This document shows, piece by piece, positions 6,753 to 58,580 of a DNA stretch of 64,000 bases. The DNA comes from Patescibacteria group bacterium (GTDB lineage Bacteria > Patescibacteriota > Patescibacteriia > UBA2591 > JAQUPP01). Position 1 is the stretch's first letter; every line of letters begins with the position of its first letter. The translations under genes and the position numbers were made by a program. The stretch is from NCBI GenBank assembly GCA_028716665.1, contig JAQUPP010000002.1, positions 139,717 through 203,716 on the forward strand. Direction: 5' to 3'. A model generated the notes under the pieces. The model made no database searches, had not been told where the DNA came from, and saw only the letters and a list, made by a program, of their open reading frames with translations.

Positions 6753-6758
6753 AAAGTC

Positions 6759-6933
6759 GCGAAATTCACCTTCACTCAACGCTCCAAATCCTTGAAAATT
6801 AAAGTCGTTTTGCTTAAAGAAAAATTCATAACTCCTCTCCCGACTATAGCGGGATCGTCAAACAGATGAATTTTTCTGCAAAACTCCTTAATTTTCTAAG
6901 GCTTTTCCGCGACATCGTTCAGGTGAATTTCGC
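6759..6933. repeat. Interspersed ~175-nt repeat, copy A, with 12-bp terminal inverted repeats (gcgaaattcacc...ggtgaatttcgc); MITE-like or structured ncRNA
   Basis: Near-identical core shared with 33917-34089; internal hairpin cccg-actatag-cggg. Confidence 0.6.
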
Positions 6934-6984
6934 TAAAGCGTAATTTGTAGTATTCATAAAATTCATAGATTAGTATTATAACTT

Positions 6985-11223: not shown

Positions 11224-12396
11224 ATGGCTCAATCCAAAAATCAGTCGTCAAAGTTGGCGGTAAAAATAAAAGTTATTGGCATCGGCGGGGCGGGTGGAGC
11301 GACTATCGGCAGGCTGATTAAAGCTAAAATAAACAATATTGAATACGTCGCCATCAATACTGATTTTAAATCTCTGGATTCAATCAAGGGAAAAGTTCAA
11401 AAAATAAAAATAGGAAAAAAAATCACCAAAGGATTGGGAACGGGAATGAATTTGGAACTGGGCAGAATGGCTATTGAAGAAAGCATCAATGACGTGAAAA
11501 AATCTTTAAACAACGCTGACTTGATTTTTATCGTTTCCGGATTGGGCGGGGGAACGGGCAGCGTGGTAACGCCCATTGTGGCGGAATTGGCGAAAAAAAA
11601 TGGAGCTCTTGTTATCGGCGTAATGACTACGCCTTTTATTTTTGAAGGAGCTCAACGCAAGCATATTGCCGATGAAGCTCTTAAAAAAATAATTCATCGA
11701 GTTGACGCGATGGTTACCATTCCGAACAGCCGGCTTTTGCAGACCATTGATAAATCAACTCCTTTATTGGAAGCGTTTAATATTTCCAGCGAAATTTTAA
11801 AACAGGCGATAGAAGGAATTTATAATATTCTTAATTTGCCCGGTTTGATTAACATAGATTTTGTTGAAGTCAAAACGGTTATTGAAAACGCCGGAGAAAC
11901 AATACTCGGCATGGGCACGGCCGAAGGAGAGGACAGAGCCAGGCAAGCCGCAAAATTGGCCTTGGAAAATCCTTTAATAGATATTTCCATCAAGGGAGCG
12001 AAAAAAGTTCTTTGCACCATCAGCGGCGGACCGGATTTAACCATGAATGAAGTTTATGAAATCACTCAAGAAATCACCAATCAAATCGGAAAAGAGGCGC
12101 AAATTATTTTCGGCGCCGTAACAGATGATAATTTAAAAAATAAAGTTAAGGTGACGATTGTCGCCACGGGTTTCAGCCAATTGCATTCTTATACGCCAAT
12201 TTTTGAGCCGTTCCACAAAAAAGAATTTACCGAAACTCCACTGCCTCAAAAATCTTCAATTAAAGAAGAAAAAAAAGAAATATTGAAAATAGAACCGATT
12301 TCAAAACAGGAATATAAATCAAAGTTTCAAAACAACAGCGAATTGTCGGAAGATGAATTGGAAATTCCCGCGTATTTGAGAAAGAAAAAGATGTAA
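11224..12396 (+). CDS. ftsZ: Cell division GTPase FtsZ
   Basis: Tubulin signature GGGTGSVVTPIVAELAKK; C-terminal conserved tail EIPAYLRKKKM. Confidence 0.95.
   Translation: MAQSKNQSSKLAVKIKVIGIGGAGGATIGRLIKAKINNIEYVAINTDFKSLDSIKGKVQKIKIGKKITKGLGTGMNLELGRMAIEESINDVKKSLNNADLIFIVSGLGGGTGSVVTPIVAELAKKNGALVIGVMTTPFIFEGAQRKHIADEALKKIIHRVDAMVTIPNSRLLQTIDKSTPLLEAFNISSEILKQAIEGIYNILNLPGLINIDFVEVKTVIENAGETILGMGTAEGEDRARQAAKLALENPLIDISIKGAKKVLCTISGGPDLTMNEVYEITQEITNQIGKEAQIIFGAVTDDNLKNKVKVTIVATGFSQLHSYTPIFEPFHKKEFTETPLPQKSSIKEEKKEILKIEPISKQEYKSKFQNNSELSEDELEIPAYLRKKKM
12331..12396 (+). repeat. Direct repeat copy 1 (authentic ftsZ 3' end, 66 nt)
   Basis: Sequence aacaacagcgaattgtcggaagatgaattggaaattcccgcgtatttgagaaagaaaaagatgtaa recurs at 13391, 14847, 16866. 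Confidence 0.9.
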
Positions 12397-12418
12397 TTTA
12401 AGGTGAAATTATAGTCAA

Positions 12419-12490
12419 AACCGTGAAAATCCGTGTTTTTTACCAGTTTTTCACGGTTATCTTGACAAAACCGTGAAAAAAGTGTATAAT
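12419..12490 (+). promoter_or_regulatory. Sigma-70-like promoter (TTGACA-17-TATAAT at 12462-12490) overlapped by three AACCGTGAAAA operator-like repeats (two inverted, one direct)
   Basis: Hexamers and spacing read directly; aaccgtgaaaa at 12419 and 12469, ttttcacggtt at 12448. Confidence 0.6.
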
Positions 12491-12498
12491 AGTAGTAT

Positions 12499-13386
12499 AT
12501 GACAAAAATACTTAATGTTTTCAATAATATAAATTCTCTTCGTGAGAGATACTATAAAGCGTCTATAGGCAAGCAGGCGCTTATTAAACTTATCGCCGAA
12601 ACCGAAGTCGCCGAACAGGTTTATAACTCAAACGCCATTGAAAACAGCACGCTTACTTTCGAAGAAACCGAAAAAATACTTCTTCAAATTGATTTGGACA
12701 GATTTATTACCGAACGAGAAATTTTTGAAGCAAAGAATTTGGCAAAAGTTGTATCCTATATAGACAAAAAAGCCAAAGAACAAGAACTTACACTTGAAGT
12801 AATTTTATCACTTCATAAAATGTTAATTTCAAATATCCGCGATGATGTCGCCGGAAGATTTAGAAAAGACAATGAATTTGTGCGTGTTGGAAACCATATA
12901 GCCCCGAATCCAAAAGAAGTAGTGGATCGCCTTGAAAAAATGTTGGCGGAATATAATGCCGCAAGCCATGAGAATATTATTAAGCGCATAGCGAAATTGC
13001 ATCTTGCTTTTGAATATACCCATCCGTTTATTGACGGCAATGGCCGCATTGGACGCGTTATTAACAATTATTTACTGATACGAGAAGGATTCGTCCCGAT
13101 AAATATAAAATTTATTGACAGGAAAAAATATTATGAAGCATTTAAAGAATTTGACGAAAAAGGCGCGACGGCTGTTATGGAAGAAATAGTGGGTAGGGCG
13201 CTTACTAATAGTTATCACAAACGATTGGCATATTTGGAAGGTAAAAAAATTATCACTCTGGCTGACTATGCTAAAAATAATAAACTTTCGCATTCAAATC
13301 TTATAAATAAAGCGGTTCGTCAAACAATTGAAGCTTTCTTGGAAAAGAATGTCTGGAAGATCGGCGTTAATAATACTAAAAAATAA
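12499..13386 (+). CDS. Class II Fic-family protein (AMPylator-like) with N-terminal inhibitory motif
   Basis: HPFIDGNGRIGR canonical Fic motif; SNAIEN matches (S/T)xxxE(G/N) inhibitory helix. Confidence 0.85.
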   Translation: MTKILNVFNNINSLRERYYKASIGKQALIKLIAETEVAEQVYNSNAIENSTLTFEETEKILLQIDLDRFITEREIFEAKNLAKVVSYIDKKAKEQELTLEVILSLHKMLISNIRDDVAGRFRKDNEFVRVGNHIAPNPKEVVDRLEKMLAEYNAASHENIIKRIAKLHLAFEYTHPFIDGNGRIGRVINNYLLIREGFVPINIKFIDRKKYYEAFKEFDEKGATAVMEEIVGRALTNSYHKRLAYLEGKKIITLADYAKNNKLSHSNLINKAVRQTIEAFLEKNVWKIGVNNTKK

Positions 13387-13390
13387 TATA

Positions 13391-13456
13391 AACAACAGCG
13401 AATTGTCGGAAGATGAATTGGAAATTCCCGCGTATTTGAGAAAGAGAAAGATGTAA
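13391..13456 (+). repeat. Direct repeat copy 2 of ftsZ 3' end (66 nt, 1 mismatch)
   Basis: Sequence identity to 12331-12396. Confidence 0.9.
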
Positions 13457-13667
13457 AATGAAAAAGCCCCCGATAGAGACGGAACTCTATAAGGGTCTTC
13501 TTCGTGGTGATATAATCATCTTATCAAATATAAAATTTTTGTCAAAACATTTATTGTGAATAAATTTCAAAATTTTTAGAAATAGTGAGTAGTATGTTGG
13601 AGTAAAATTTGATATAATTAAAAATTAACAGTTAATACTTGAACAGTAATAACTAACCAAAAAAATA

Positions 13668-13925
13668 ATGTACTCAATTATAGAAACAATCAAACAGGCT
13701 GCCAGTAAAAGAAAGATTTTAAAGATTATTTATCGTGAGAAAGATGGTACAAGCGAGGGGTGGCGATATATAGAACCCTATAGTTTCAGTCATGATGATG
13801 GCGAAGACGGTCTTTTTGCTTGGGATATTAGTAAAGGTGGCATCAGGAGATTTTCATTTGATAGAATTAATGATATTCAACTCACTGATGAAACATATAA
13901 TCCGCGTTATGGGATAGAAATTTAA
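13668..13925 (+). CDS. Stand-alone WYL-domain-like small protein
   Basis: KILKIIYREKDG..RYIEPYSF...GLFAWD...GIRRFSFDRI matches WYL domain consensus (iiY..g..R.veP..l.....wyL.aw....g.R.FrldRI). Confidence 0.55.
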   Translation: MYSIIETIKQAASKRKILKIIYREKDGTSEGWRYIEPYSFSHDDGEDGLFAWDISKGGIRRFSFDRINDIQLTDETYNPRYGIEI

Positions 13926-13926
13926 T

Positions 13927-14727
13927 ATGGAAAATAAAAAATTTAAATTAAAAATAAAAAAAAGAACTTTACTTATTATTGATTGGGCAAACGTTTGGGG
14001 TTGGTCAAAAACTTTAAAATGGGAAGTATGCCCTCAAAAATTATTTAAATTTTTTGATAGACCAAAAATTATTGATAAAAGATTTTATTATGGAGTAGAA
14101 AAGGGTCAGCCAAAATCAGAAAATTTTGAATTAGAAATTAAAAACATCGGATTTACTCCTATTTTTAAAGAAGTTAAATGGATACCAGTTTTGCTGGAAG
14201 AACAGTCTCATTTTAAGAAAATTGTTAAAGATTTATTTAATGTATTAGATAATGTGAAAAATACAAATTCTAATATTTCAAATAAACTTTATGAGTTGAT
14301 TAAAAAAATCAATGATTTGTCTGAAACAAGCGTTGGTAACAACAAGGAATCTTTTAACTTGTCTAGTGAGAAAAGTTTAAAGGAAATATTTGACTTAATT
14401 GAAGAATTGGATATTGATTTGAAAAATTTGAATATTGAAATAGGCGGGCTTCAAGAAAATTTAAAATTGCCGGTTCGAAGGCGGAAATGTGATTTTGATG
14501 TAGAAATAACTAGAGATGCTTTGAATGCTCAAGATAATTATGATACATTATTGTTATTTAGTGGGGATGGTGATTATTCTGCCTTAACAGCGGATTTAAT
14601 TGCAAAAGGTAAAAAGGTAATTTTAGTTTTTGCTTCTGATCATTTAGGGAAGGAATATCGAGAGATAAAGAGTAATCTTTTTTATGCTTGTTTAATTGAT
14701 AATTTAAGAGATATTTTACAAAAATAA
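13927..14727 (+). CDS. NYN/LabA-like (PIN-fold) predicted ribonuclease with central coiled-coil insert
   Basis: N-terminal LLIIDWANV and C-terminal LLLFSGDGDYSALTADLIAKGKKVILVFA match NYN/LabA core. Confidence 0.55.
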   Translation: MENKKFKLKIKKRTLLIIDWANVWGWSKTLKWEVCPQKLFKFFDRPKIIDKRFYYGVEKGQPKSENFELEIKNIGFTPIFKEVKWIPVLLEEQSHFKKIVKDLFNVLDNVKNTNSNISNKLYELIKKINDLSETSVGNNKESFNLSSEKSLKEIFDLIEELDIDLKNLNIEIGGLQENLKLPVRRRKCDFDVEITRDALNAQDNYDTLLLFSGDGDYSALTADLIAKGKKVILVFASDHLGKEYREIKSNLFYACLIDNLRDILQK

Positions 14728-14728
14728 A

Positions 14729-14757
14729 TCCGAGGAAGTAATTCCTCGGATTTATGT
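14729..14757 (+). terminator. Hairpin terminator after NYN gene (ccgagga-agtaatt-cctcgg + T)
   Basis: Inverted repeat read directly. Confidence 0.5.
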
Positions 14758-14846
14758 GTATCTCAATGAATAAATTCATTGAGCGCGATTAATTAAAATA
14801 TAGCATATAATGTTAAAATTACAATAGGCCATTGTGGATAACCTCA

Positions 14847-14910
14847 AACAGCGAATTGTCGGAAGATGAATTGGAAATTCCCGCGTATTTGAGAAAGAAA
14901 AAGGGGTAAT
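14847..14910 (+). repeat. Direct repeat copy 3 of ftsZ 3' end (~64 nt; gatg->gggg change)
   Basis: Sequence identity to 12333-12396. Confidence 0.85.
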
Positions 14911-14983
14911 TTATCTTGCACTATTCCTTAAATAAACCGCGATAGAACAATAGAAGGGGAATAAATTAATTATAATATAAAAT

Positions 14984-15241
14984 ATGAGCCTAACAAATAG
15001 AATAAGTGATGGGTGGCTTCGCTTATTAATAACAATTTGCTATACAATTATTTCTTTATTTTTTCTATATAAAGGAGTTGATTTAATAAAAATAGGAGCA
15101 AGAGGAGAATGGAGGGTTGTTGCTGATTTTAAAGATATACCACTTTATATAACAAGTATTTCCCCTGGTGTATTAGTAATTTTAGCTGGCATGCTGATAA
15201 TGTGTTGGGGCCTGCCAACAACTATAAAGAATTTAAAATAA
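14984..15241 (+). CDS. Small two-TM membrane protein, unknown function
   Basis: Two hydrophobic helices; no recognisable motif. Confidence 0.4.
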   Translation: MSLTNRISDGWLRLLITICYTIISLFFLYKGVDLIKIGARGEWRVVADFKDIPLYITSISPGVLVILAGMLIMCWGLPTTIKNLK

Positions 15242-15394
15242 ATATGGCCCGAATAAGATACAAAAATCCAATTGAATATAAAGGGTTATAGGCGGGGAAA
15301 ATTTTATGACAAGAAGATACCTATTAATGAGTCCACGAAGAGAAATTTTAATATATGATGAAAAAAATTAAAAACTAATTTAATCGTCAGTCAT

Positions 15395-15883
15395 ATGCAT
15401 GCAAAAATTTTAAATCAAGATGCCGATACTTATTACAATGAAGGAATAGGCTTAGAAAAATTGGGACACTACGAAGAAGCAATAGAAATGTATGACCAAG
15501 CAATTAAAATTAATCCTCGATTTGACGCCGCCTATTACAGTAAAGGAAGGACCTTAAATGAATTAGGGAATTACAGAGAAGCGATAAAAATGTTTGATCA
15601 GGCAATTAAAATTGCCCCTCAATTTGCCTGGATTTATAATAAAGGATATCAAGAAGTGATAGAAAGATCCTGTCAGGCAATCAAATTTAGAGGAAGTGAC
15701 TTAAATGAATTAGGGAATTACAGAGAAGCGATAAAAATGTTTGATCAGGCAATTAAAATTGATCCTCAGAATGCCGATGTTTATATTAGAAAAGGATATG
15801 CCTTAGATAAATTAGGTAATCATAGAGAAGCGATAAAAATGTATAAAAAGGCACTTAAAATTGATCCTCATTTTGGAGAATAA
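15395..15883 (+). CDS. TPR-repeat protein (contains two nucleotide-identical internal repeats)
   Basis: Repeated YxEAIKMxDQAIKIxP TPR-like units; DLNELGNYREAIKMFDQAIKI duplicated. Confidence 0.65.
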   Translation: MHAKILNQDADTYYNEGIGLEKLGHYEEAIEMYDQAIKINPRFDAAYYSKGRTLNELGNYREAIKMFDQAIKIAPQFAWIYNKGYQEVIERSCQAIKFRGSDLNELGNYREAIKMFDQAIKIDPQNADVYIRKGYALDKLGNHREAIKMYKKALKIDPHFGE

Positions 15884-15947
15884 ATAATTGAATAAAAATA
15901 ATGAATAGTGACTACGATGATTTAATTAAATTAAAGTAAATGAATCT

Positions 15948-16844
15948 ATGGAAGAAAAATTAAAAAAACGATTTACTTTTAAACTTTGGAGTCGCGAAAG
16001 AGATTTAAAAACTTTAAAATATATTGCTATATTTATAGTTGTTTTCGCTTCAATCATAATAATCTTGGATGCGATTGACTATCAGTTTGGCTCCAATGAA
16101 GATAACTCAGCTAATGAACCTACTGAGCAAAAAGTGGAAGAAAATAATTGCAATGTGTCGGGCATTCAATTGCATGGGGAATTTGTGACTTATATTCCAT
16201 CAAATAATTTTGATAAAGACGGAAATGTTTTGGAAGATCAAACCTCTTCTGACAATATTGTTTATTACATCAATGAAGCAGAAAAAAATGAAAGTATTAA
16301 AGCTATCATTTTAGAAATTGATTCTTACGGCGGTTCAGGAGTAGCCGCGGAAGAAATCAGTAATGCTTTAAAAAATGCTAAAAAGCCAACAGTTGCTTTA
16401 ATTAGAGATATTGGAGCCTCGGCTGCTTATTTTGCGGCAACCGGTACAGACAGAATTTTTGCTTCTAAAAATTCTAACGTTGGCAGCATAGGAGTTACCA
16501 TGTCTTATCTAGACTATACTCAACAAAATCAAAAAGAGGGAGTGACTTATATTCCGCTTAGTTCAGGAAAATTCAAAGATACCGGCGACCCGGATAGGGC
16601 ACTCTCACAAGAAGAAAAAGACCTTTTAATGCGTGACGTCAATATCCAATATCAAAATTTCATAAAATCAGTAGCGGAAAATAGAAATTTAGATATTAAA
16701 AAAGTGGCAGAATTAGCTGATGGTTCAACTATGCTTGGAGAAATGGCACTTCAAAACGGATTAATTGATCAAATCGGCGGGATAGAGGAGGTTAAAGAAT
16801 ATCTAAAAGAAAAAATCGGAGAAGACGTGGATATTTGTTGGTAA
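15948..16844 (+). CDS. SppA-like signal peptide peptidase (S49 family), N-terminal TM anchor
   Basis: IDSYGGSGVAAEEI, GASAAYFAA (Ser nucleophile context), SIGV motifs of S49/ClpP-fold peptidases. Confidence 0.7.
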   Translation: MEEKLKKRFTFKLWSRERDLKTLKYIAIFIVVFASIIIILDAIDYQFGSNEDNSANEPTEQKVEENNCNVSGIQLHGEFVTYIPSNNFDKDGNVLEDQTSSDNIVYYINEAEKNESIKAIILEIDSYGGSGVAAEEISNALKNAKKPTVALIRDIGASAAYFAATGTDRIFASKNSNVGSIGVTMSYLDYTQQNQKEGVTYIPLSSGKFKDTGDPDRALSQEEKDLLMRDVNIQYQNFIKSVAENRNLDIKKVAELADGSTMLGEMALQNGLIDQIGGIEEVKEYLKEKIGEDVDICW

Positions 16845-16865
16845 ATAATTTTATTTAAGAAAAAA

Positions 16866-16899
16866 TAATTCCCGCGTATTTGAGAAAGAAAAAGATGTA
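16866..16899 (+). repeat. Direct repeat copy 4 (partial, 34 nt) of ftsZ 3' end
   Basis: aattcccgcgtatttgagaaagaaaaagatgtag. Confidence 0.8.
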
Positions 16900-17070
16900 G
16901 TTTATTCCCTACCGGATTGACAATTTTTTATCGCTCAAATTCTAGCAGTTTGAATTAAAATTTTGCATAAGTTTTCAAAATATATTATTTTTTAAATGAT
17001 GATGAATATAAATGGATTATTGCACAATTTAATGAATAAGTGAGTTAAGAAATATAAGGTTCAAAATAGT

Positions 17071-18564
17071 ATGAAAAATATTCAAATTCAGAAATCGAAT
17101 AGTAGTGAGAAAGAAACCATAACAATTGAAAAAAATATGGTTATTATTGGGGCAAATGGTTCTGGTAAAACAAGACTCGGAGCAATGCTTGAACAAATAA
17201 ATACTCCTACAAAAAGAATTTCTGCACAGAGATATTTGACATTGCGTGAATTAGTAGAAAAGCAAGACGTTGAGACTGCAGATAATCAACTTAAAAATAT
17301 TTATAAAAATCAACCTTCTAATTCACCTCAAAATGATTATCAGCAAGTACTTATTTTATTGTTTGCCCAAGAATCAAGGAGGGATTCAGAGTACGTAGCA
17401 TCTTCGCGTGAGTCTAGAGGGAGGGTAGAAATTCCACAATCAATAAAAGAGAAGGTGATTGATTGTTGGATTTCTATTTTTCCTTATCGAGCATTAAAAC
17501 TTGAGAAAGATAGGGTTCGAGCTGATGATTTCTCTGGGCAAGAGATGAGTGACGGCGAAAAAGTTGGCCTGTATTTAATCTCTCAAATTTTACTTGCTGA
17601 AAAAGACTGTATTCTAATTATTGATGAACCAGAACTTCATCTACATAAAGCTTTAATGACAAGATTGTGGAATAAATTAGAAGAATATAGAAGTGACTGT
17701 ACTTTTATTTATATAACCCATGATCTCGATTTCGCAGTTAGTAAGTCGTCAAGTAAGCTCATTTGGGTCCAGAGTTATAAAGATAATTTATGGATTTGGA
17801 AAGAGATTGATCCAAATAATATAATTCCTGAGAATCTTTATCTTGAAATACTTGGAAGTCGAAAATCAATTTTATTTGTTGAAGGTGAGAAGGGTTCGCT
17901 AGATATACAAATTTATCAGTTATTCTATGATAATTTTACAGTTATTCCTCGCGGCTCTTGTGGAGAAGTAATTGAATCGGTAAAGGGTTTAAAAAAGAAT
18001 CCTAATCTTCACGACAAAAAGGTTTATGGGCTTATTGACAGGGATTTTCATTCTGAAGAAAAGATTAAATCATGGCATAAAAAAGGAATATTTAGTATTA
18101 AATTAAATAAGGTAGAAAATCTTTTTTTGATACCAGAAATAATTGAGATGGTCTGTAATCATTTGTCGAAACCAGAAGAAAAAGAAAAAATTATCTCAAA
18201 AATTAAGGAAAATTATAAAAAAAATAAAAAGAAAATATTTTTTACTGCTTCAAAAGATCGACAACATAGGCACTTAGGTGAAAAATTTGGATTGGTAAAA
18301 AATAAAAAGAATTATGATAATTTTAAAAGTGTTATTTTTTCTGAATTAGATAGCCTGTTTGTAAGTGATTTGCCAGATAATAATAGTGAAATTATAGAAA
18401 TATTGAAGGTTTATCCGTATAAGGGTTTTGTTAGAGAGATACAGGGAATGGTAGGATTATCAAAAAATGAATATATAAATTTGGTGTTAAGTTTTTTATC
18501 ATCTTCCGATAAAAGAAAAAAAATAATTAAAATTTTAAAATTTTATTTACCCAGAATAAACTAA
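17071..18564 (+). CDS. OLD-family-like ABC-type ATPase fused to Toprim-like/DUF4435-like C-terminal domain (candidate defence nuclease)
   Basis: Walker A GANGSGKT, signature MSDGEK, Walker B ILIIDEPELHLH, H-loop IYITHD; C-term ILFVEGEKGSLD ... GLIDRDF resembling Toprim E and DxD motifs. Confidence 0.6.
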   Translation: MKNIQIQKSNSSEKETITIEKNMVIIGANGSGKTRLGAMLEQINTPTKRISAQRYLTLRELVEKQDVETADNQLKNIYKNQPSNSPQNDYQQVLILLFAQESRRDSEYVASSRESRGRVEIPQSIKEKVIDCWISIFPYRALKLEKDRVRADDFSGQEMSDGEKVGLYLISQILLAEKDCILIIDEPELHLHKALMTRLWNKLEEYRSDCTFIYITHDLDFAVSKSSSKLIWVQSYKDNLWIWKEIDPNNIIPENLYLEILGSRKSILFVEGEKGSLDIQIYQLFYDNFTVIPRGSCGEVIESVKGLKKNPNLHDKKVYGLIDRDFHSEEKIKSWHKKGIFSIKLNKVENLFLIPEIIEMVCNHLSKPEEKEKIISKIKENYKKNKKKIFFTASKDRQHRHLGEKFGLVKNKKNYDNFKSVIFSELDSLFVSDLPDNNSEIIEILKVYPYKGFVREIQGMVGLSKNEYINLVLSFLSSSDKRKKIIKILKFYLPRIN

Positions 18565-18688
18565 GAATCTATAAATTATTTTTTAGGATTTAATTAATAT
18601 AGTTAAGCTTTTTTATTCGCATTTCAACATCGTTCTGTCACTCTCAATAAATAAATTTTAGCTTGAAAATCAACAATAATTTAAATCT

Positions 18689-20590
18689 ATGAAAAAACAA
18701 TTCTCATTTTTTAAAATTACAATAATCATTTTAATATTTGGTGTTTTTGCATTTGTCAATCAAGTTTGTGCAGAAATAAATGATTATCAACTAAATAAAA
18801 ATGATGTTCAATATGCGATAACACCATTAATATTTAACGAAGGGGATAGAGAGCCAATTGAATTAAAGTTTAAAATATTATCATCAAATTTTGATTATAC
18901 TGAAATTAAGTCTATTTATTTTAAGTTTTATAATTATTCTGATGATTTATACTTTTCTTTTTCTAAAGGAATCTTTGAAAATGATTGGAACACAAATAAC
19001 AAAGAATTCACATTCAGTATGACAAATGATTGGTCTACAAGATATAATGCCAAGTTAATTTCAATTGATTATCAGGTTAAATATCAAAATATTTTGTATT
19101 CTATTCCAATTGATGATGAAACCAAAATAATAGTTATACCGACGGTGCCGATTACTTGTAATTCTTTTATTTATTCTAATTGGTCTTCTTGCTCTGAGGG
19201 CGGTTCACAGACAAGGTCTATAATTTCTTCTTCTCCAAGTGGATGTTCCGGGGGCAACCCTATTTTAACTCAAACTTGTACTTATGTTCTACCAGTTTGC
19301 ACTTCATGGGTATATTCCGATTGGAATATTTGTCAATCTAATGGGACACAAAATAGAACTGTAACTTCATTTTCACCAAACGGTTGCACGGGTGGCAACC
19401 CTATTTTAACTCAATCCTGTGCTTATGTTGCACCAACCTGCACTTCATGGACTTATTCTAATTGGTCTTCGTGTTTAGACAACAGTCAGCAAACAAGGTC
19501 TATAATTTCTTCTTCTCCAAATGGTTGTTCTAATGGAAATCCAATATTGACTCAATCTTGCACATATATTTACACTCCACCAACCTGCACTTCATGGACT
19601 TATTCTGATTGGGGCGCGTGTGTTAATAATCAACAAAGCAGAACAATAATATCGTCACAGCCTGCAAGCTGTATTGGCGGTAATCCTATATTAATACAAA
19701 CTTGTAATCTTACACCAGCCTGTTCAGAAAACGATTGGACGTCTCTTTTAACTCCAACGGCTTGTCCAAATAACGGTCAGCAAACAAAAACATGGTATAA
19801 AATAGGGCAATGCCAAGAGGGAGTTACTCATCCATCTACAGAAACAATCAGCTGTAATTATCAAGCACTTACTTGTACTGATTTCACATACAATAATTGG
19901 GGTGAGTGCGGTTTAAGCGGTGTGCAATCAAGGACGGTATTTTCTTCTTCTCCAAGTGGATGTTCCGGGGGCAACCCTATTTTAACTCAAACTTGTACTT
20001 ATATTCCTACCTGCATAGTAAATAATTGGTCTTGTGGTAATTGGTCTAGTTGTTCTTCAAATGGTGCTCAAACTAGAATATGTAATAAAATTTTAAATTG
20101 CGATGGGGGCGTATTGTCGCCTGCAACTACACAATCATGTATTTATACATCGCCAGAAAAACAAGAAAATATCGGTTCACTTTCGGACGGAACCTTGGTC
20201 AGAATAAAAGGTACTGCCGGTGTTTATTTAATTTATAACAATCAAAAACGTCCCATTAAGAGTGCTGCGGTATTTTTAGGCAGAGGATATAAATGGAAAA
20301 ATATAATTGATGTTGATGCGAATATATTAAATGTTTATCCTACGGGCTCAGAATTAACAATTTCAGAAGTAATAAATATAGTGCCAAAAAATCAGGGTAT
20401 CAAGATAAAGATTAATGTCCCGAGTTTGCGAGTTAGAAGTTTACCCAATGCGAACGGAAAAATTATTATTTCAGTCTTGAACGGGAAAGAATATCAAGTG
20501 ATCGAAAAACAAACCGGTTGGTATAAAATAAATTATACTGCTAATAAAACAGGCTGGATAATGAGCCAATATACAAAAATAATTAAATAA
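18689..20590 (+). CDS. Secreted protein with ~7 thrombospondin-type-1-like Cys-rich repeats and C-terminal SH3b-like domain
   Basis: Signal peptide; repeats CTSW.YS.WS.C..NG.QTR...SSSP.GC.GGNPILTQ.C.Y (W-S-x-W-S-x-C...QTR) with near-identical DNA copies; C-term GWYKINYTANKTGWIMSQYTKI. Confidence 0.55.
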   Translation: MKKQFSFFKITIIILIFGVFAFVNQVCAEINDYQLNKNDVQYAITPLIFNEGDREPIELKFKILSSNFDYTEIKSIYFKFYNYSDDLYFSFSKGIFENDWNTNNKEFTFSMTNDWSTRYNAKLISIDYQVKYQNILYSIPIDDETKIIVIPTVPITCNSFIYSNWSSCSEGGSQTRSIISSSPSGCSGGNPILTQTCTYVLPVCTSWVYSDWNICQSNGTQNRTVTSFSPNGCTGGNPILTQSCAYVAPTCTSWTYSNWSSCLDNSQQTRSIISSSPNGCSNGNPILTQSCTYIYTPPTCTSWTYSDWGACVNNQQSRTIISSQPASCIGGNPILIQTCNLTPACSENDWTSLLTPTACPNNGQQTKTWYKIGQCQEGVTHPSTETISCNYQALTCTDFTYNNWGECGLSGVQSRTVFSSSPSGCSGGNPILTQTCTYIPTCIVNNWSCGNWSSCSSNGAQTRICNKILNCDGGVLSPATTQSCIYTSPEKQENIGSLSDGTLVRIKGTAGVYLIYNNQKRPIKSAAVFLGRGYKWKNIIDVDANILNVYPTGSELTISEVINIVPKNQGIKIKINVPSLRVRSLPNANGKIIISVLNGKEYQVIEKQTGWYKINYTANKTGWIMSQYTKIIK

Positions 20591-20594
20591 AGAT

Positions 20595-20813
20595 ATGATA
20601 GGTACGATTGGATTAATTTTTAATTTTATCGGTACATTATTGATTATCCTTTTTATAGGTAAAGATCAAAATGAGTGGACGGAGAACGAAGGAAAATATA
20701 AAAATAAAAAATATTATGCCTTATTTATTAAGTGCCCCCGTTGTTTAAATTTTGGAATTATTTTAATAGTTATAGGATTTATTTTTAGTTTAATTGATAG
20801 TTTATTAAAATAG
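20595..20813 (+). CDS. Small membrane protein with CPRC motif, unknown function
   Basis: ORF with two hydrophobic segments; weak. Confidence 0.3.
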   Translation: MIGTIGLIFNFIGTLLIILFIGKDQNEWTENEGKYKNKKYYALFIKCPRCLNFGIILIVIGFIFSLIDSLLK

Positions 20814-20849
20814 CGAGTAGTACGACAGGGTAAAATTTCAAAAAAGTCA

Positions 20850-20878
20850 TTGTCAACAAATTAATTTTGTGATATAAT
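20850..20878 (+). promoter_or_regulatory. Promoter TTGTCA-17-TATAAT with extended -10 (TGTGATATAAT) upstream of gyrB
   Basis: Hexamers/spacing read directly. Confidence 0.5.
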
Positions 20879-20885
20879 ATTACTG

Positions 20886-22928
20886 ATGAAAAATAAACAA
20901 ACAGACAAAAAGACGGAAGTCAAAATAACTCCTCAAGACAAAAAGAAGGCGGATATTAAAGAATATGGCGCCAAGCAAATTACCGTTCTTGAAGGATTGG
21001 AACCGGTTAGAAAAAGACCGGCCATGTATATTGGTTCAACCGATTTAACCGGCTTGCATCATCTTATTTGGGAAGTGGCGGACAACGCTTTGGACGAAGC
21101 CACGGGCGGTTTTTGCAATGAAATAAGCATTGAATTATTGGAAGGCAACAGAGTCAGAGTTTCGGATAACGGCCGAGGTATTCCGGTTGATATTCACAAA
21201 GGCACGGGTAAAAGCGCGCTTGAAGTGGTTATGACCAAACTTCATGCCGGCGGAAAATTTGACCAAGGAGCTTATAAAATTTCAGGCGGATTGCACGGGG
21301 TGGGAGTTTCAGTGGTAAACGCTTTGTCAGTTTACACAAAAGCGGAAGTTAAGAGAGACGGAAAACTTTGGGCGCAAGAATATAAACGGGGAATTCCAAC
21401 CGGAAAAGTCAAACCAGTCGGAAAAGCAGAGGGGAGCGGAACAATCATTACTTTCCAGCCTGATCCGGAAATTTTTCCAAGAACAGATTTTAATTTTGAA
21501 ACAATTTTAAATCATCTTCGCCAGCAAGCTTATTTGACACGCGGAATAAAAATCAGTGTTTCCGACGAATCGTCTCCGAAAAATAAAAAATCATACACTT
21601 TTTATTTTGAAGGCGGCGTATATTCGTTTGTTCAATATTTAAATAGAACCAATGAACCGCTGCATCCGAATGTTTTTTACGTGGCCAAAGAAGCGGAAGA
21701 TATTTTCGTGGAAGTCGGTTTTCAATACACCAATGATTTCAGAGAATGTTTGCTCGGTTTTGCCAATAATATTTATACTCCCGAAGGCGGATCGCACGTG
21801 GTCGGTTTTCGTTCAGCTTTGACCAGAGTATTAAACAGCTATGCCAGAGATAAAGATTATATAAAAGAAAAAGATGCCAATTTGACAGGTGATGATGTTC
21901 GCGAAGGATTAACCACGGTTATCAGCGTGAAATTAAAAGATCCGCAATTTGAAGGCCAGACCAAAAGCAAGTTGGGAAATGTTGAAGCGAGAACGGCGGT
22001 TGATACGATTTTCTCCGCTGCTTTCAAAGATTTTTTGGAAGAACATCCCAAAGATGCGGAAGCGATTATTAAACGTTGCGTTTTGTCGGCCAAGGCCAGA
22101 CAAGCGGCCAAATCAGCCCGAGAAACAATTTTAAGAAAAGGCGTTTTGGAAAGCTTGGCTTTGCCGGGAAAATTGGCTGATTGCACTTCGAGAGATCCTC
22201 AATTGAGCGAACTTTTCATTGTCGAAGGAGACAGTGCCGGTGGAAGTTGTAAAATGGCTCGCGACAGAATGTATCAGGCGATTTTGCCATTGCGCGGAAA
22301 AATTATGAACGTTGAGAGAGCGCGTTTGGATAAAATTCTTTCCAATCAAGAATTAAAATCTTTGGTTATCGCTTTGGGAACAAATATCGGAGAACAATTT
22401 GAAATTGAAAAATTGCGCTATCATAAAATTATTATTATGACTGATGCGGACGTAGACGGTTCGCACATCAGAACGCTTCTTTTGACTTTCTTCTATCGTT
22501 ATTTTCCGGAATTGGTCAATCAGGGATTTATTTACGCCGCTCAACCGCCATTGTATCGCGTTCAATTTGGCGGTAATTCCAAATATTTTTACAATGAAGA
22601 AGACAAAGATAAATTTTTAAAACAAGAGAGAAATGATAAATCGGAAGAAGTGGGCAAAGGATTTAAAGTAAAGAAAATAGGGGATACGCCCAAGCAATCA
22701 GCGCCGAAAAATTTTAACATTCAAAGATATAAAGGTTTGGGTGAAATGAATCCGGACGAACTTTTTGAAACCACCATGAATAAAAACACCCGCATTTTGA
22801 AAAAGATAGAAGTGGAAAACGCCTCCAAAACAGACGAGATATTTGATATTTTAATGGGCAAAGACGTTGAACCGAGAAAAAGATTTATTCAAACCCACGC
22901 CAAAGCCGTTAAAAATTTGGATATCTAA
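20886..22928 (+). CDS. gyrB: DNA gyrase subunit B
   Basis: GHKL ATPase motifs (HHLIWEVADNALDEA, DNGRGIP, GGLHGVG), Toprim EGDSAGGS, C-terminal QRYKGLGEMNP. Confidence 0.93.
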   Translation: MKNKQTDKKTEVKITPQDKKKADIKEYGAKQITVLEGLEPVRKRPAMYIGSTDLTGLHHLIWEVADNALDEATGGFCNEISIELLEGNRVRVSDNGRGIPVDIHKGTGKSALEVVMTKLHAGGKFDQGAYKISGGLHGVGVSVVNALSVYTKAEVKRDGKLWAQEYKRGIPTGKVKPVGKAEGSGTIITFQPDPEIFPRTDFNFETILNHLRQQAYLTRGIKISVSDESSPKNKKSYTFYFEGGVYSFVQYLNRTNEPLHPNVFYVAKEAEDIFVEVGFQYTNDFRECLLGFANNIYTPEGGSHVVGFRSALTRVLNSYARDKDYIKEKDANLTGDDVREGLTTVISVKLKDPQFEGQTKSKLGNVEARTAVDTIFSAAFKDFLEEHPKDAEAIIKRCVLSAKARQAAKSARETILRKGVLESLALPGKLADCTSRDPQLSELFIVEGDSAGGSCKMARDRMYQAILPLRGKIMNVERARLDKILSNQELKSLVIALGTNIGEQFEIEKLRYHKIIIMTDADVDGSHIRTLLLTFFYRYFPELVNQGFIYAAQPPLYRVQFGGNSKYFYNEEDKDKFLKQERNDKSEEVGKGFKVKKIGDTPKQSAPKNFNIQRYKGLGEMNPDELFETTMNKNTRILKKIEVENASKTDEIFDILMGKDVEPRKRFIQTHAKAVKNLDI

Positions 22929-23281: not shown

Positions 23282-23827
23282 ATGCCTAGGCAAATTCAAC
23301 AAGAAGGCCGCCGTTGGTATGCCATTCATACTTATGCCGGATACGAAGAAAACGTGGCCGAAAACTTGCAGCAAAGAATTGACTCAATGGACATGCACGA
23401 TAAAATTTTTAATATTTTAATTCCCACTGAAAAGAGAATTAAAATAAGAAATAGCAAGCGAAGAGTGGTGATTGAAAAAATGTTTCCCGGTTATGTATTA
23501 GTGGAAATGGATGTAACCGATGATTCATGGTATGTGGTCAGAAATACACCGAATGTTACCGGTTTTATCGGCTCGGGCACTACGCCTACTCCGTTGTCTG
23601 ACGCGGAATTTAAAAATATTCAGAAAAGAATGGGTGTTGAAGAACCCAAATATAAAATTGATATCAGCATCGGTTCTCCTGTTAAAATCAATGATGGACC
23701 GTTTAAGGGTTTTGAAGGCAGAGTAGAGGAAGTTGACGAAATGAGAGGAAGATTAAAAGTTCTGATTTCCGTCTTCGGCCGCGAAACTCCTATTGAATTA
23801 GACTTTTTACAGATTAAAAAAATATAA
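23282..23827 (+). CDS. nusG: Transcription termination/antitermination factor NusG
   Basis: NGN domain ([14 protein letters not shown]) and KOW motif ([21 protein letters not shown]). Confidence 0.9.
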
Positions 23828-23834
23828 TAATTTT

Positions 23835-24260
23835 ATGGCTAAAAAAATAAAAAGCGTTATTAAACTTCAAATTCAGGCAGGACAAGCTAATCCCGCGCCG
23901 CCAGTCGGTCCGGCATTAGGCCAGCACGGTTTAAATATCGCGGAATTTTGCAAAAAATTTAATGACGCCACTAAAGATAAAATCGGCAACATTATTCCGG
24001 CGGAAATTACTGTTTTTGAAGACAGGACTTATTCTTTTGTTCTCAAAACTCCTCCCGCTTCGGAATTGCTTAAAAAAGCGGCCGGTATTGAGAAAGGTTC
24101 AGGAAAACCATTGCAAGTGAAAGTTGGAAAAGTAACCAAAGCTCAAATCAGAGAAATTGCCAAAATAAAATTACCGGATTTGAATACTGATAATTTGGAA
24201 GCGGCTTGTAAAATTATTGAAGGCACAGCCAGACAAATGGGCATTGAGGTGAAAAACTAA
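23835..24260 (+). CDS. rplK: 50S ribosomal protein L11
   Basis: [27 protein letters not shown]. Confidence 0.93.
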
Positions 24261-25672: not shown

Positions 25673-27058
25673 TTTCTTGATAATTGATCCTTGCTCAGCA
25701 TCTTCCACCGTAAATCCTAAATCTTCAATTTTTTTGCGAACTTGGTCGGCTTCCGACCATTTTTTTTGTTTTCTTAATTCTTCCCGTTCTTTGGCCAAGG
25801 CAGATATTTCTTCCGGAATTTCTATCGGTTTTACTTTATCCAAATTTAATCCCAAAACTTGGTCAAACTTCAATAAAGTGGCCATTTTTTGTTCATCAGG
25901 ATATTTTTCTTTTAATAAATCCCAAACAACCGCCAAAGCTTTTGGCGTGTTTAAGTCATCGTTAATGGCTTGGTCAAATTTTTCTTCAACTTCTTTAATT
26001 ATGGTAGTTGGTTTAGGAAAATTTCCCACGATTTGATAAAGATTATTCAAAGCATTCTGAGCCGCAGTTAAACTTTCCAAATCAAAGGATAGGGGAGAAC
26101 GGTAATGAGTGTTTAAACATAAATAACGGAAAGCCAAAGATTGAAAATTTAAATTTTTTAATTCTGAAAGGGTATAAATTTCACCTTTACTTTTTGACAT
26201 TTTTCCGCCTTTAAACAAGAGCCATCTTATATGCAGCCAATAATTGACGAATTTTTTACCCGTGGCCGCTTCGCTTTGGGCGATTTCATTAGTATGATGA
26301 ATGGCAATATGTTCTTCACCGCCGGTATGAATGTCGAAATGTTCTCCCAGATATTTCATACTCATAGCCGAGCATTCAATATGCCAGCCCGGAAAACCAA
26401 TTCCCCAAGGGCTTTCCCATTCTTGCTGCCTTTTCGCTTGTCCTGAGCCATGAGCTTGTCGAATGGTCGAAGGGGAGAATTTCCAAAGAGCAAAATCAGT
26501 AATGTTCTTTTTTTCTTTCATCTCAATTCTCGCACCTGCCTCAAGCCCTTCTATTTTGAGTCCGGCCAATTTGCCATAATCTTTTAATTTGGAAGTGTCA
26601 AAATAAATTCCGTCAGAAGTTTTGTAAGTATATCCTTTTTCTTCCAATTTTTTTATCAATTCAATTTGTTCTTTAATATGTTCGGTTGCCTTGCACCAAA
26701 TATCGGGTTCGGAGATATTTAATTTTTTAAAATCATCTTTAAGAATTTGCCAATAATAATTGGCGATATCTTCCGCTTTTTTCCCTTCTTTGGCAGCCGC
26801 TTTTTCCATTTTATCTTCGCCTGTGTCCGCATCAGAAGTTAAATGTCCAACATCAGTTACATTGATAACATGCTTGATTTGATAATTATTGTAAATTAAG
26901 GTTTTTTTGAGAACATCGGCAAAAATATAAGCTCTTAAACAGCCGATGTGCTGATACCAATAAACCGTTGGGCCGCAAGAATAAATGCCGGCAAAACCGG
27001 GTTTAATCGGTTTAAATTCTTCTTTCTGGCGAGTGAGAGTGTTATAAAGTTTTAACAT
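25664..27058 (-). CDS. cysS: Cysteinyl-tRNA synthetase (with 12-16 aa insertion [13 protein letters not shown] before the GWHIECS zinc motif)
   Basis: Class I HIGH-like region ([17 protein letters not shown]), [14 protein letters not shown]. Confidence 0.92.
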
Positions 27059-27117: not shown

Positions 27118-27173
27118 ATTAATTAATAATTCCAAACATGTTTTGGAAAGAAAATTAAAAAAGGAGGAAAACC

Positions 27174-27569
27174 ATGAATAGCGGAGTATATGCCGTTAGG
27201 CAGCTACGGAAAATTCGCAAAATTCAGAAAGAACAGAATAGGGTTATAAAAAGATATGAAAAAGAAAAAAGGATAATTGCAGATGCAATTATCACGAGAA
27301 TCGAAGAACCGGTTTTAAGCGGAGATTTATTTCGGATCATGAAAGACTCAGGTAATCGTCCGCCGGAAGAAATTAGATTTGAAGTTAATAAAGAAAAAGG
27401 AACCCTGGATGTCATTTTTGACTACAGCGGAAATTATCTCGATAATAATAAGGTGAATGGCGAATTCATTGATGATTGGGTGCAAAAAAAAGTTCAAGAA
27501 AGATTTAAAGAATGGGGTATGTCTTCGGAGTATATTTCCAGTTGTATTATCGCAGAATATGGGAAATAA
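27174..27569 (+). CDS. Hypothetical protein (paralog-leader gene 1)
   Basis: ORF preceded by conserved 41-nt leader with near-palindrome ttccaaacatgttttggaa and AGGAGG SD. Confidence 0.5.
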   Translation: MNSGVYAVRQLRKIRKIQKEQNRVIKRYEKEKRIIADAIITRIEEPVLSGDLFRIMKDSGNRPPEEIRFEVNKEKGTLDVIFDYSGNYLDNNKVNGEFIDDWVQKKVQERFKEWGMSSEYISSCIIAEYGK

Positions 27570-27612: not shown

Positions 27613-27680
27613 TATTAAAATTTTTTACTCTTGACAAAAGCTAAAAAATATGCTAATATATTAATAATTCCAAACATGTT

Positions 27681-28085
27681 TTGGAAAGAAAATTAAAAAA
27701 AGGGGGAAGAATGACGGAAATCCAAGAAAATTTTTATGATGGAATGAGAGCGGCCGAAAAGGGCCTTTTAAGTTCTGGCCTTCCGATAACTATGCCCGAT
27801 CTTATTGGTTTCAGATTTGTTTTTGGGTGTAAATATGGTTCTCATTACCAAATTCTTGTTGGTACTATCACCGGAGTTCGTATTTCCGATATAGGGGGAT
27901 TTCAGCTTCAGATTTCTAATGAGAAGATGGGTGGGGACAAGATTGACTGTATTATACAAACAGAAGAGGGTTGGGAATTAATAACTCTTCCAGAGGAAAA
28001 AGAGTGTTCAAGGCCAATAATGGGCGCCACGAATCTTTACCATCCCAAAGATAGGGGGTATTATCCGGGAGTTTTCTTAAAATAA
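27681..28085 (+). CDS. Hypothetical protein (paralog-leader gene 2), own TTGACA-17-TAATAT promoter at ~27632
   Basis: Same 41-nt leader as 27174 gene; no recognised domain. Confidence 0.5.
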   Translation: MERKLKKGGRMTEIQENFYDGMRAAEKGLLSSGLPITMPDLIGFRFVFGCKYGSHYQILVGTITGVRISDIGGFQLQISNEKMGGDKIDCIIQTEEGWELITLPEEKECSRPIMGATNLYHPKDRGYYPGVFLK

Positions 28086-33899: not shown

Positions 33900-33916
33900 A
33901 TTGATAACGAATGGTG

Positions 33917-34089
33917 GCGAAACCCGCCTTCACTCAGCGCTCCAAATCCTTGAAAATTATACTCGTTTTATTTTTAAAAATTCATAACTCCTCTCCCGAC
34001 TATAGCGGGATCGTCAAACAGATGAATTTTTCAATAAAACTCCTTAATTTTCTAAGGCTTTTCCGCGATTTCGTTCAGGCGAATTTCGC
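33917..34089. repeat. Interspersed ~175-nt repeat, copy B, with terminal inverted repeats (gcgaaacccgcc...ggcgaatttcgc)
   Basis: Core near-identical to 6759-6933; ORF 33911..34126 in track is considered spurious. Confidence 0.6.
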
Positions 34090-34163
34090 CATAAGCATAT
34101 TTGATAATTTTGCGAGCGTAGTATAAGGGGTATTATGTCATCTTCTTTACCCCGTTAAATTTT

Positions 34164-50628: not shown

Positions 50629-50650
50629 AATTTTTTAATTTTTACTAATT

Positions 50651-51388: not shown

Positions 51389-51441
51389 TATAAATTTGCT
51401 TCTTTTAGTAAAATTTATTAATATTAAGTCATATCTTAATC

Positions 51442-58154: not shown

Positions 58155-58580
58155 ATGAAAGTAAATAAAAAATTAATTTTTAGCATTATAATTATTGCGG
58201 TTATTGCCGGAATAATTTTGTTATGTTGTTTATGGAAAAGTGGTTATTGGCAAAAGAAAAAAATAAATCAAATTCAAGAGCAATTTAAAAATCAGTCCCA
58301 ATCGCAAACCGGAATGGTCAATCCAGCTTCAAAATATTGCGTTGAACAAAACGGAACATTGGAAATAAGAAAAAATGAAGCAGGCGAGTATGGAGTTTGT
58401 GTTTTCGCGAATGGCACCGAGTGCGATGAATGGGAATTTTTTCGCGGAGAATGCAAGGTAGAAAGAGATAAATGTGTTGATTTATGCGGAGATCAAATAT
58501 GTCAAGAAGTTGTTTGCAAGGAAATAGGGAGTCCTTGCGCGGAAACAAAAGAAACTTGTCCGGCAGATTGTAAAAAATAA
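58155..58580 (+). CDS. Secreted DUF333-domain Cys-rich protein (paralog 2)
   Basis: NPASKYCVEQNGTLEI...GEYGVCVF..GTECDEWEFFRGEC; same C-terminal Cys module. Confidence 0.6.
   Translation: MKVNKKLIFSIIIIAVIAGIILLCCLWKSGYWQKKKINQIQEQFKNQSQSQTGMVNPASKYCVEQNGTLEIRKNEAGEYGVCVFANGTECDEWEFFRGECKVERDKCVDLCGDQICQEVVCKEIGSPCAETKETCPADCKK

Follow-up and report, generated by a model that had tools for sequence, protein, structure and literature searches.

The interval between ftsZ and gyrB in one clade of Patescibacteria is a fast-changing insertion hot spot, in which small units of cargo genes are bordered by direct repeats of the ftsZ 3' end. The stretch analysed here (the window) consists of 64,000 nucleotides (nt) of contig JAQUPP010000002.1 from a Patescibacteria group bacterium (assembly GCA_028716665.1, positions 139,717 to 203,716 of the forward strand) and contains, between the two core genes, an island in which the tail of ftsZ recurs three times downstream of the intact gene. 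Very probably, and regardless of the enzyme involved, such islands arose by serial insertion into the ftsZ tail, the repeats being displaced former tails.

Reiteration of the ftsZ 3' end

The repeated unit corresponds to the last 22 codons of ftsZ, which end in NNSELSEDELEIPAYLRKKKM and the stop codon. The gene and the four copies of its tail in the window are:

11224..12396, + strand: ftsZ, 390 amino acids (aa), Pfam Tubulin and FtsZ_C
12330/12331-12396, + strand: R1, the native ftsZ tail
13390-13456, + strand: R2, a 66-67-nt tail copy including the stop codon, 66/67 identical (mismatch AAA>AGA)
14847-14909, + strand: R3, a ~63-nt tail copy that differs only in the last codon (GGG versus ATG)
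16867-16899, + strand: R4, a 33-34-nt tail copy, 33/33 identical, with the stop codon TAG versus TAA

All four copies have the same orientation, 100 dinucleotide-preserving shuffles give an expectation of 0 matches to each repeat half, and no further copy of the ftsZ tail is present in the 64-kb window, which bears out the reiteration described in the first-pass annotation of this DNA, made from the sequence alone. The match of R3 runs 4 nt beyond the stop codon, to 14913, into the sequence found downstream of ftsZ, and that of R4 extends to 16904; the GGG last codon of R3 is that of ftsZ in most relatives. Across the ftsZ alleles and the repeat copies, a 44-nt stretch of the tail contains a single polymorphic site. 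The density of single-nucleotide polymorphisms (SNPs) in the last 100 nt of ftsZ (11 sites) equals the gene average and is uninformative as a mosaic signal. The GC content of the cargo is 0.28-0.34, versus 0.40 for the ftsA-ftsZ and gyrB flanks. Every gene of the island is co-oriented with ftsZ, which is of little informative value because the same holds for nearly all genes of the window.

The assembly artefact that the first-pass annotation had allowed for was not found. One assembly (GCA_028713475.1, L001) is 100% identical to the window across 21 kb, and an independent one (GCA_028690995.1, L002) differs from it by 6 SNPs, all located in the last segment, and possesses all four copies. The four-copy array is therefore genuine.

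Variation of the ftsZ-gyrB interval among relatives

The loci of relatives were collected by a genome scan, a metagenome DNA-pattern scan and exact-protein look-ups. The FtsZ 90% cluster includes seven alleles, all from Patescibacteria metagenome-assembled genomes or metagenome contigs. The flanks of the interval are conserved (93-95% nt identity for ftsZ and gyrB; 96-100% aa identity for ftsA, nusG and others), and ftsZ is full length in all cases. The content of the interval takes at least eight different forms, with tail copies at the unit borders in six of these. Denoting the copies R34, R64, R66 and R95 by their length in nt, members of these classes are found across L003, L004, L006, L007 and L012. 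The eight forms are:

Type 1, window: ftsZ, Fic, R66, WYL-NYN, R64, membrane protein-TPR-SppA, R34, AriAB-SH3-repeat protein-membrane protein, gyrB
Type 2, L003: ftsZ, 101-aa open reading frame (ORF) "H", R34, four small ORFs, gyrB
Type 3, L004 and L023 (two samples): ftsZ, Nmad3-SppA, R34, 252-aa protein-methyltransferase, gyrB
Type 4, L005: ftsZ, zinc-ribbon/trypsin-like protein of 387 aa, 236-aa membrane protein, gyrB; no repeat
Type 5, L006 (fragment): ...NYN, R66, H, R34, other ORF...
Type 6, L007/L024 and L025 (two samples): ftsZ, RhuM, R95, Schlafen AlbA_2-239-aa protein-SH3-repeat protein, gyrB
Type 7, L012 (150-kb contig; fragments L010, L013 and L008): ftsZ, NYN, R64, 372-aa protein-118-aa protein-methyltransferase, gyrB
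Type 8, the contig of P0002 (gene calls only): ftsZ, KTSC protein of 70 aa, 123-aa protein...

The probability that these arrays result from a chimeric assembly, with strain variants joined at an ftsZ-tail k-mer common to them, is negligible. The short contigs L010, L013 and L008 do end in a repeat copy or at most ~95 nt from one, which is expected where co-occurring strains differ, but the L012 array is contiguous within its 150-kb contig, the four-copy array recurs in L001 and L002, and the L004 and L007 types each come from two samples.

The next-closest FtsZ proteins are 49-55% identical to those of the cluster. In three loci of a sister clade (FtsZ 49-52% identical), there are no tail repeats, and the gene order is ybeY-ftsA-ftsZ-(1-2 small genes)-gyrB-secE-nusG. 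Since this clade keeps the synteny without the repeats, the array is derived. The hot spot and its repeats are therefore a derived trait confined to a single narrow clade, in which the turnover of the interval outpaces a core divergence of ~5%. The block that consists of SppA, the motif TTAAGAAAAAAT and R34 is shared by the window and L004/L023 at 88% nt identity; R34 differs at 4 of 34 positions, so the repeat and the adjoining SppA gene diverge at an equal rate.

Two further differences between the window and these loci lie outside the interval. In relatives, a 129-aa gene of the 23S_rRNA_IVP family is located between nusG and rplK (L003 6338-6727; L008; L012 17426-17815); the window (23827-23835) lacks it, which makes this a second small presence/absence site nearby. 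The sister-clade gyrB (L015, L016, L020 and L021; e.g. L015 7771-10488) encodes 905 aa and contains an intein (Pfam Intein_splicing), whereas no intein is found in the 680-aa gyrB product of the window.

Structure of the unit borders

In ~15 junctions, homology to ftsZ runs out on the right either with the stop codon or 3-4 nt past it (TAA-TTT), and the last codon varies among junctions (ATG, GGG, GGA, AAT). The left edges belong to discrete classes, at -34, -64/-66 and -95 from the stop. The -34 edge is found behind SppA and behind ORF H, in four configurations; the -64/-66 edge behind Fic and three NYN units, the position being the same within 1-3 nt; and the -95 edge behind RhuM. The stop codon of the Fic gene lies 4 nt before R2, in another frame, whereas the RhuM ORF enters R95 in a different frame and has its stop codon there.

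Short motifs unrelated to ftsZ abut many of these edges. Every R34 is adjoined by TTAAGAAAAAAT, located at 16855-16866 in the window and occurring on its + strand only there. The three NYN proteins are 33-36% identical, yet each unit ends in a TTGTGGATAAC-type motif 5-6 nt from R64 or R66, a motif that is absent from the Fic-R66 border. In the window, a DnaA-box 12-mer (14831-14842; box 14833-14841, - strand) lies 6 nt left of R3 and includes the sole perfect TTATCCACA box of the 64 kb; L012 (~11903-11914), L008 and L010 have the exact 12-mer reversed, 5 nt left of R64, and L006 has a degenerate copy left of R66; all three are behind NYN-domain units. The NYN-unit 3' ends of the window and L006 share the 20 nt that abut the repeat (p 0.011), similarity being significant in this stretch only; for the 3' untranslated regions of the window and L012 units, it is not significant (p 0.13). 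The motifs and edge classes could represent a signature of crossover, although the sharing of the R34 motif is also compatible with descent from single events.

On the other side of the repeats, two leader sequences recur and are followed by unrelated cargo each time: the "alpha" leader after ftsZ of L003, R66 of L006 and R95 of L007, and the "beta" leader after R4 and, in part, R3 of the window, R34 of L004 and R64 of L012. R34 is always the most distal copy, with R64-95 proximal. The unit of H and R34 directly follows ftsZ in L003 but ranks second in L006, where NYN and R66 stand before it. The comparison of the interval across relatives, which the first-pass annotation had put forward as a check, has thus revealed conserved flanks, differing cargo, tail copies between units and a shift in rank, an outcome that agrees with the prediction and supports the interpretation given in that annotation. 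In L007, R95 combines the tail variants C at -76 and T at -64, a combination that is not present in the ftsZ gene of that genome.

Cargo of the island

The features of the island and its right flank in the window are:

12397..13389, + strand: cassette A, promoter and Fic gene, GC 0.34
12499-13386, + strand: Fic gene (Pfam Fic 2.4e-23; PADLOC PDC-S04 1e-34, SoFic 3e-27)
13457..14846, + strand: cassette B, leader, WYL, NYN and hairpin, GC 0.28
13668-13925, + strand: WYL gene (Pfam WYL 8e-12)
13927-14727, + strand: NYN gene (Pfam NYN 8.6e-14)
14724-14755: hairpin of cassette B
14910..16866, + strand: cassette C, membrane protein, TPR and SppA
14984-15241, + strand: 85-aa membrane protein
15395-15883, + strand: TPR protein (Pfam TPR_1 8e-40)
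15948-16844, + strand: SppA/S49 peptidase (Pfam Peptidase_S49 1e-38)
16900..20844, + strand: terminal segment D, without a repeat on its right side
16900-16935, + strand: beta leader, common to L004, L008/L012 and, in part, the flank of R3
17071-18564, + strand: fused AriA-AriB (PARIS-like), 497 aa (PADLOC AriAB 1.2e-110, residues 5-496; Pfam SMC_N/AAA_21 and DUF4435)
18689-20590, + strand: Cys/Trp-repeat protein, 633 aa, repeats of ~47 aa, C-terminal Pfam SH3_3
20595-20813, + strand: 72-aa membrane ORF
20850-20878, + strand: right flank, gyrB promoter TTGTCA-17-TGtGATATAAT (promoter scan 11/12 with TG)
20886-22928, + strand: gyrB, 680 aa, 93-94% nt identical to relatives

The PARIS system combines the ABC ATPase AriA with the TOPRIM/DUF4435 nuclease AriB (PMC11464382). 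The ATPase gene of segment D matches this composition, with both parts fused in one predicted protein, and is accordingly described here as a fused AriA-AriB rather than the "OLD-like ATPase" of the first-pass annotation. The Fic, WYL, NYN, TPR and SppA assignments of that annotation hold, whereas the putative TSP1-repeat protein (the 633-aa Cys/Trp-repeat protein) has no TSP1 match in Pfam. The proposed division into four repeat-bounded segments applies to the first three; the fourth has no repeat on the gyrB side and shows turnover without repeats.

Matches to defence models in the window (PADLOC) include AriAB, PDC-S04/SoFic, WYL and NYN, and those in the cargo of relatives include PDC-S05 (RhuM, 1e-138) and a mad2-like methyltransferase, with Schlafen AlbA_2 and Nmad3 identified by Pfam. 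The interval thus has the make-up of a defence hot spot, that is, variable cargo between core genes that is enriched in defence-system genes. The enrichment in defence- or toxin-like genes originally suggested is valid for the part of the cargo with PADLOC or Pfam matches; about half (membrane proteins, TPR, SppA, the SH3-repeat protein and small ORFs) is without defence annotation. No non-coding RNA or tRNA target was found within the island.

The Fic gene has its own promoter of the perfect sigma-70 type, TTGACA-17-TATAAT (12462-12490; promoter scan 12/12). Its leader (12400-12498) contains three copies of AAACCGTGAAAA, two direct and one inverted, that flank the promoter and lie within it, an arrangement that looks like an operator.

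The gyrB-proximal border

A 31-nt motif is shared by the leader of cassette B (13580-13610) and the region upstream of gyrB (20808-20838), with 25/31 identical positions (shuffle p ~0.002) and no third copy. The sharing noticed in the first-pass annotation is thus upheld, but the second copy does not belong to the native gyrB upstream region, as had been assumed: the upstream regions of gyrB in relatives lack the motif, and the ~250-nt stretch that contains it together with the 72-aa ORF (~20594-20841) is specific to the window, being absent from L024 (11890-11935) and L025. As an insertion, it separates the SH3-repeat gene of the window from the gyrB promoter; in all relatives, homology resumes ~10 nt upstream of the gyrB -35 box. 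In the leader of cassette B, a weak gyrB-promoter-like stretch (13542-13583, p ~0.04) precedes the motif, whereas at gyrB the promoter comes after the motif, a permutation that may hint at a former head-to-tail junction.

Possible origin of the array

Serial insertion can be envisaged as follows. Small cargo units would have been spliced successively into the 3' end of ftsZ, each bringing a replacement tail that restores the FtsA-binding C-terminal peptide and the stop codon. The previous tail, attached to the old downstream DNA, would be displaced and remain as a truncated direct repeat, the equivalent of attR. Reiteration of this process would yield the order ftsZ, Fic, R66, WYL-NYN, R64, membrane protein-TPR-SppA, R34, older DNA, gyrB. 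The nested rank order, the leaders and the edges fit this scenario, and we infer on these grounds that insertion occurred at the true end of ftsZ, with older junctions displaced towards gyrB.

A direct-repeat array with the gene restored may be viewed, by analogy, as the canonical signature of site-specific recombination, and we give somewhat less than an even chance to this process having operated, with a recombinase that acts in trans or has been lost. The crossover would then coincide with the left edges of the repeat classes (near -34, -64/-66 and -95), as in the elements that target tRNA and tmRNA genes, rather than in an att site overlapping the ftsZ stop codon as first proposed. The recombinase would be provided in trans or encoded by decayed parent elements, the present units resembling integrase-less cis-mobilizable elements (CIMEs). 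Existing repeats would also permit RecA-type deletion, gene conversion and swapping, with an intact ftsZ regenerated each time. A more elaborate variant, in which the units are recombinase-less mini-cassettes whose ftsZ-tail mimic serves as recombination site or portable homology arm and the locus is a platform where a host enzyme, either an unlinked recombinase or RecA after DNA uptake, stacks, swaps and deletes them while ftsZ is made whole again each time, appears unlikely.

Several observations weigh against insertion by a dedicated recombinase or against insertion at the ftsZ tail as the only process. In agreement with the first-pass annotation, which had noted the lack of an integrase in the window, neither a transposase nor a recombinase of the tyrosine or serine type was detected with Pfam in the ~17 cargo units of the 8 configurations, in 40 other ORFs of the window and in the Pfam-annotated gene tables for the fetched flanks; the intergenic gaps are shorter than 260 nt and leave no room for integrase remnants. 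Neither a relaxase nor any other mobility gene is present in any unit of the genomes compared. No viral or plasmid-like carrier was found, viral contigs showing no match to the repeat core (two patterns) or to the AriAB and Fic proteins. Folding of either strand of the repeat as single-stranded DNA does not depart from shuffled sequences (z 0.08 and -0.47; -0.91 and -0.25 for R3 and R4 with flanks), and by inspection GAATTggAAATTC, located at the -34 edge, is the sole obvious dyad-symmetric core in the tail. Several specificities would be required for three or more crossover classes. The ATG last codon, among the compared genomes, is found in that of the window alone, yet in 3/4 of its copies, which points to homologous gene conversion among them. 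Furthermore, the differences between terminal segments extend to within ~10 nt of the gyrB -35 box, a border that lacks a repeat, and some internal genes are also swapped without a repeat: AriAB in the window and Schlafen with the 239-aa protein in L007 alternate upstream of the same SH3-repeat gene (89% nt identity with L007/L024; boundary 22 nt upstream of the ATG), and the homology between the window and L004 in SppA begins at the start codon of this gene. Another process is therefore at work here as well, and ordinary illegitimate or flank-homology exchange also shapes the interval.

The comparative data leave both alternatives of the first-pass annotation viable, site-specific integration and homologous recombination. 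In a scheme that relies on homology only, which is conceivable but which we would rather doubt, the incoming unit consists of the ftsZ body, a tail, cargo and a tail copy, and after uptake RecA pairs both arms, the long ftsZ left arm and the 34-95-nt tail copy with the single tail of the recipient, so that the cargo is looped in irrespective of the DNA downstream in the recipient and the repeats act as portable homology arms on the right; a circle formed between two repeats could re-enter by a single crossover, unit ends would be conserved by descent, and cargo within a slot would be replaced by illegitimate events. A single enzyme would account for all repeat lengths (34-95 nt), and this scheme agrees with the failure to find a recombinase anywhere searched, with the concerted evolution of the window copies (the Met codon in 3/4; GCG in 4/4, compared to GCT in 4/5 of the ftsZ allele types of relatives), with the divergence of R34 in step with SppA, which indicates that it is not specially conserved, and with the homologous or illegitimate exchange demonstrated by the repeat-free turnover and the replacement of terminal segments near the gyrB promoter. 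However, for every class the initial duplication of the tail must still have arisen by an illegitimate event of its own; discrete left edges and abutting motifs beside unrelated or diverged cargo are not predicted and have to be attributed to descent; and 34 nt, with 2-4 mismatches in certain genomes, does not exceed the minimal length at which RecA usually acts efficiently. The repeats could also be scars of a few illegitimate events facilitated by homology, where a donor molecule anchored at gyrB or downstream was joined by its other end, within the donor ftsZ tail, behind resident cargo; the units would then not be cassettes and the repeats would have no further role. Each repeat is indeed continuous with the following DNA, as if derived from a donor ftsZ end, the alpha and beta leaders occur behind both true ftsZ genes and repeat copies, the variants in R95 of L007 are foreign to its own ftsZ, the RhuM ORF that ends inside R95 resembles an arbitrary join, and illegitimate borders are frequent in the interval. 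Nevertheless, random ends predict scattered edges, whereas the observed edges recur with conserved motifs, and the cargo behind H with R34 differs between L003 and L006, which makes this origin quite improbable.

Finally, selection could maintain the repeats as decoys, free or fused, of the FtsA-binding peptide or as a regulatory signal in RNA or DNA. A 42-aa ORF that starts with TTG (13328-13456) includes R2, an in-frame TTG is located 7 codons upstream of R3, and the 44-nt stretch of the tail is nearly invariant. Against this, R4 lacks a start codon and is preceded, four codons upstream, by an in-frame TAA, the Fic and RhuM frames do not match that of the repeats, the repeat has no Rfam match and no significant fold, the copies vary in length from 34 to 95 nt, and L005 has none. 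Translated decoy peptides are ruled out by the frames and stop codons, and a function of the repeats in general is extremely unlikely.

Comparison with known systems

Tandem accretion at the 3' end of a gene is a known phenomenon; new aspects are ftsZ as the target, the Patescibacteria host, the tiny recombinase-less units and the long, variable repeats. The array displays the features of tandem elements, namely repeats of the 3' end of an intact target, polymorphism and a simpler outgroup site, but not those of an autonomous integrative element, no recombinase having been found in or next to the array. A limited literature search yielded no report of ftsZ as an integration target. In Streptococcus thermophilus, the integrative and conjugative elements (ICEs) ICESt1 and ICESt3 reportedly target fda. 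Accretion of ICESt1/ICESt3-related elements at the 3' end of a protein-coding gene is summarized in PMC5704250 (citing Pavlovic 2004 and Bellanger 2011), and tandem accretion that involves integrase-less remnants has been documented (PMC5704250; 10.1101/2020.12.28.424599). Arrays of ICEs, integrative mobilizable elements (IMEs) and CIMEs resemble the present ones in the restored gene 3' end, the direct repeat at the far border, the array organization and the integrase-less units bounded by att-like repeats; the arrays described here differ in that they lack an integrase and a relaxase, have units of 0.35-2 kb and repeats of several lengths (34-95 nt), and are located at ftsZ.

The ssrA islands of Dehalococcoides, where a conserved 15-bp motif is next to each repeat (PMC3146451), are similar as tandem islands behind a single-copy essential gene, with 3'-end repeats, an upstream motif and strain-specific content, and some of their units are without an integration module, as here. 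However, the 16 islands with a six-gene module encode a CcrB-like serine recombinase and have a uniform 20-bp repeat, in contrast to the variable repeat described here. The tRNA-linked islands, or tycheposons, of Prochlorococcus likewise occur in a streamlined genome with scattered partial copies of the target gene (10.1101/2020.12.28.424599), but they have tyrosine recombinases, tRNA targets and often replication genes, and their remnants include fragmented integrases, none of which are seen in this case. The core defence hot spots (cDHS) of Pseudomonas aeruginosa (PMC10250203) and the defence-island hot spots of Escherichia coli (PMC10121019) similarly harbour variable defence genes between the same two core genes, and their abstracts do not mention reiterated ends of a flanking gene that partition the hot spot.

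Small, co-oriented, recombinase-less units that each terminate in a recombination site and are stacked at one chromosomal position, with the enzyme encoded elsewhere, are also typical of integron cassettes and of Xer-dif modules or integrative mobile elements exploiting Xer (IMEX). Unlike integrons and Xer-dif modules, the array has no intI/attI platform next to it, and its repeat is a copy of host coding sequence. It is headed by ftsA-ftsZ, no Phage_integrase-family match is present in the scanned ORFs and gene tables, and the folding z-scores do not support an attC-like palindrome. A dif-like site (28 nt, two inverted 11-nt arms and a 6-nt spacer) is absent as judged by inspection only, with no formal dif model applied.

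Implications

To our knowledge, both the mechanisms of gene flow and the defence repertoires of Patescibacteria (also known as the candidate phyla radiation, CPR) are poorly characterized. The hot spot can be searched by its left border (ftsZ tail copies) and its right border (the gyrB promoter) for candidate defence or toxin genes; those without annotation include the WYL-NYN pair, the 101-aa ORF and the proteins of 372, 252 and 239 aa. Through the part that encodes the essential FtsA-binding C-terminal peptide, ftsZ would be one more protein-coding gene in which inserted DNA uses and regenerates the 3' end. If the units move without a recombinase of their own, they would provide a new example of a flexible gene pool in very small genomes, and the improbable platform variant, if true, would imply an integron-like, self-healing slot for defence genes in a streamlined Patescibacterial genome.

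Other repeats and elements in the window

Outside the island, a 39-nt repeat (58105-58143 and 58536-58574) was considered and rejected as not being of the ftsZ type; it belongs to two adjacent DUF333 paralogues that share a Cys-rich C-terminus. A ~180-nt intergenic element is present twice (6757-6935, upstream of the gene for the POR gamma subunit, and 33915-34095, upstream of tRNA-Gly; ~91% identity over 165 nt). By inspection, its ends appear to be inverted repeats (GCGAAATTCACCT...), it has no credible Rfam match, and it looks like a miniature inverted-repeat transposable element. An exact 41-nt direct repeat (27122-27162 and 27660-27700) is located upstream of adjacent ORFs without Pfam matches (27174-27569 and 27681-28085), and an exact 33-nt inverted match (26442-26474 and 37337-37369) links cysS (- strand) with a NIF3-like gene (37146-38120, + strand). 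The region 49759-52515 (GC 0.27-0.28), which includes a 289-aa unannotated ORF, a methyltransferase and a radical-SAM gene and shows no flanking repeats, may be a second accessory region. A group I intron is matched in Rfam at 63638-63891 (75.5 bits, E 2e-17).

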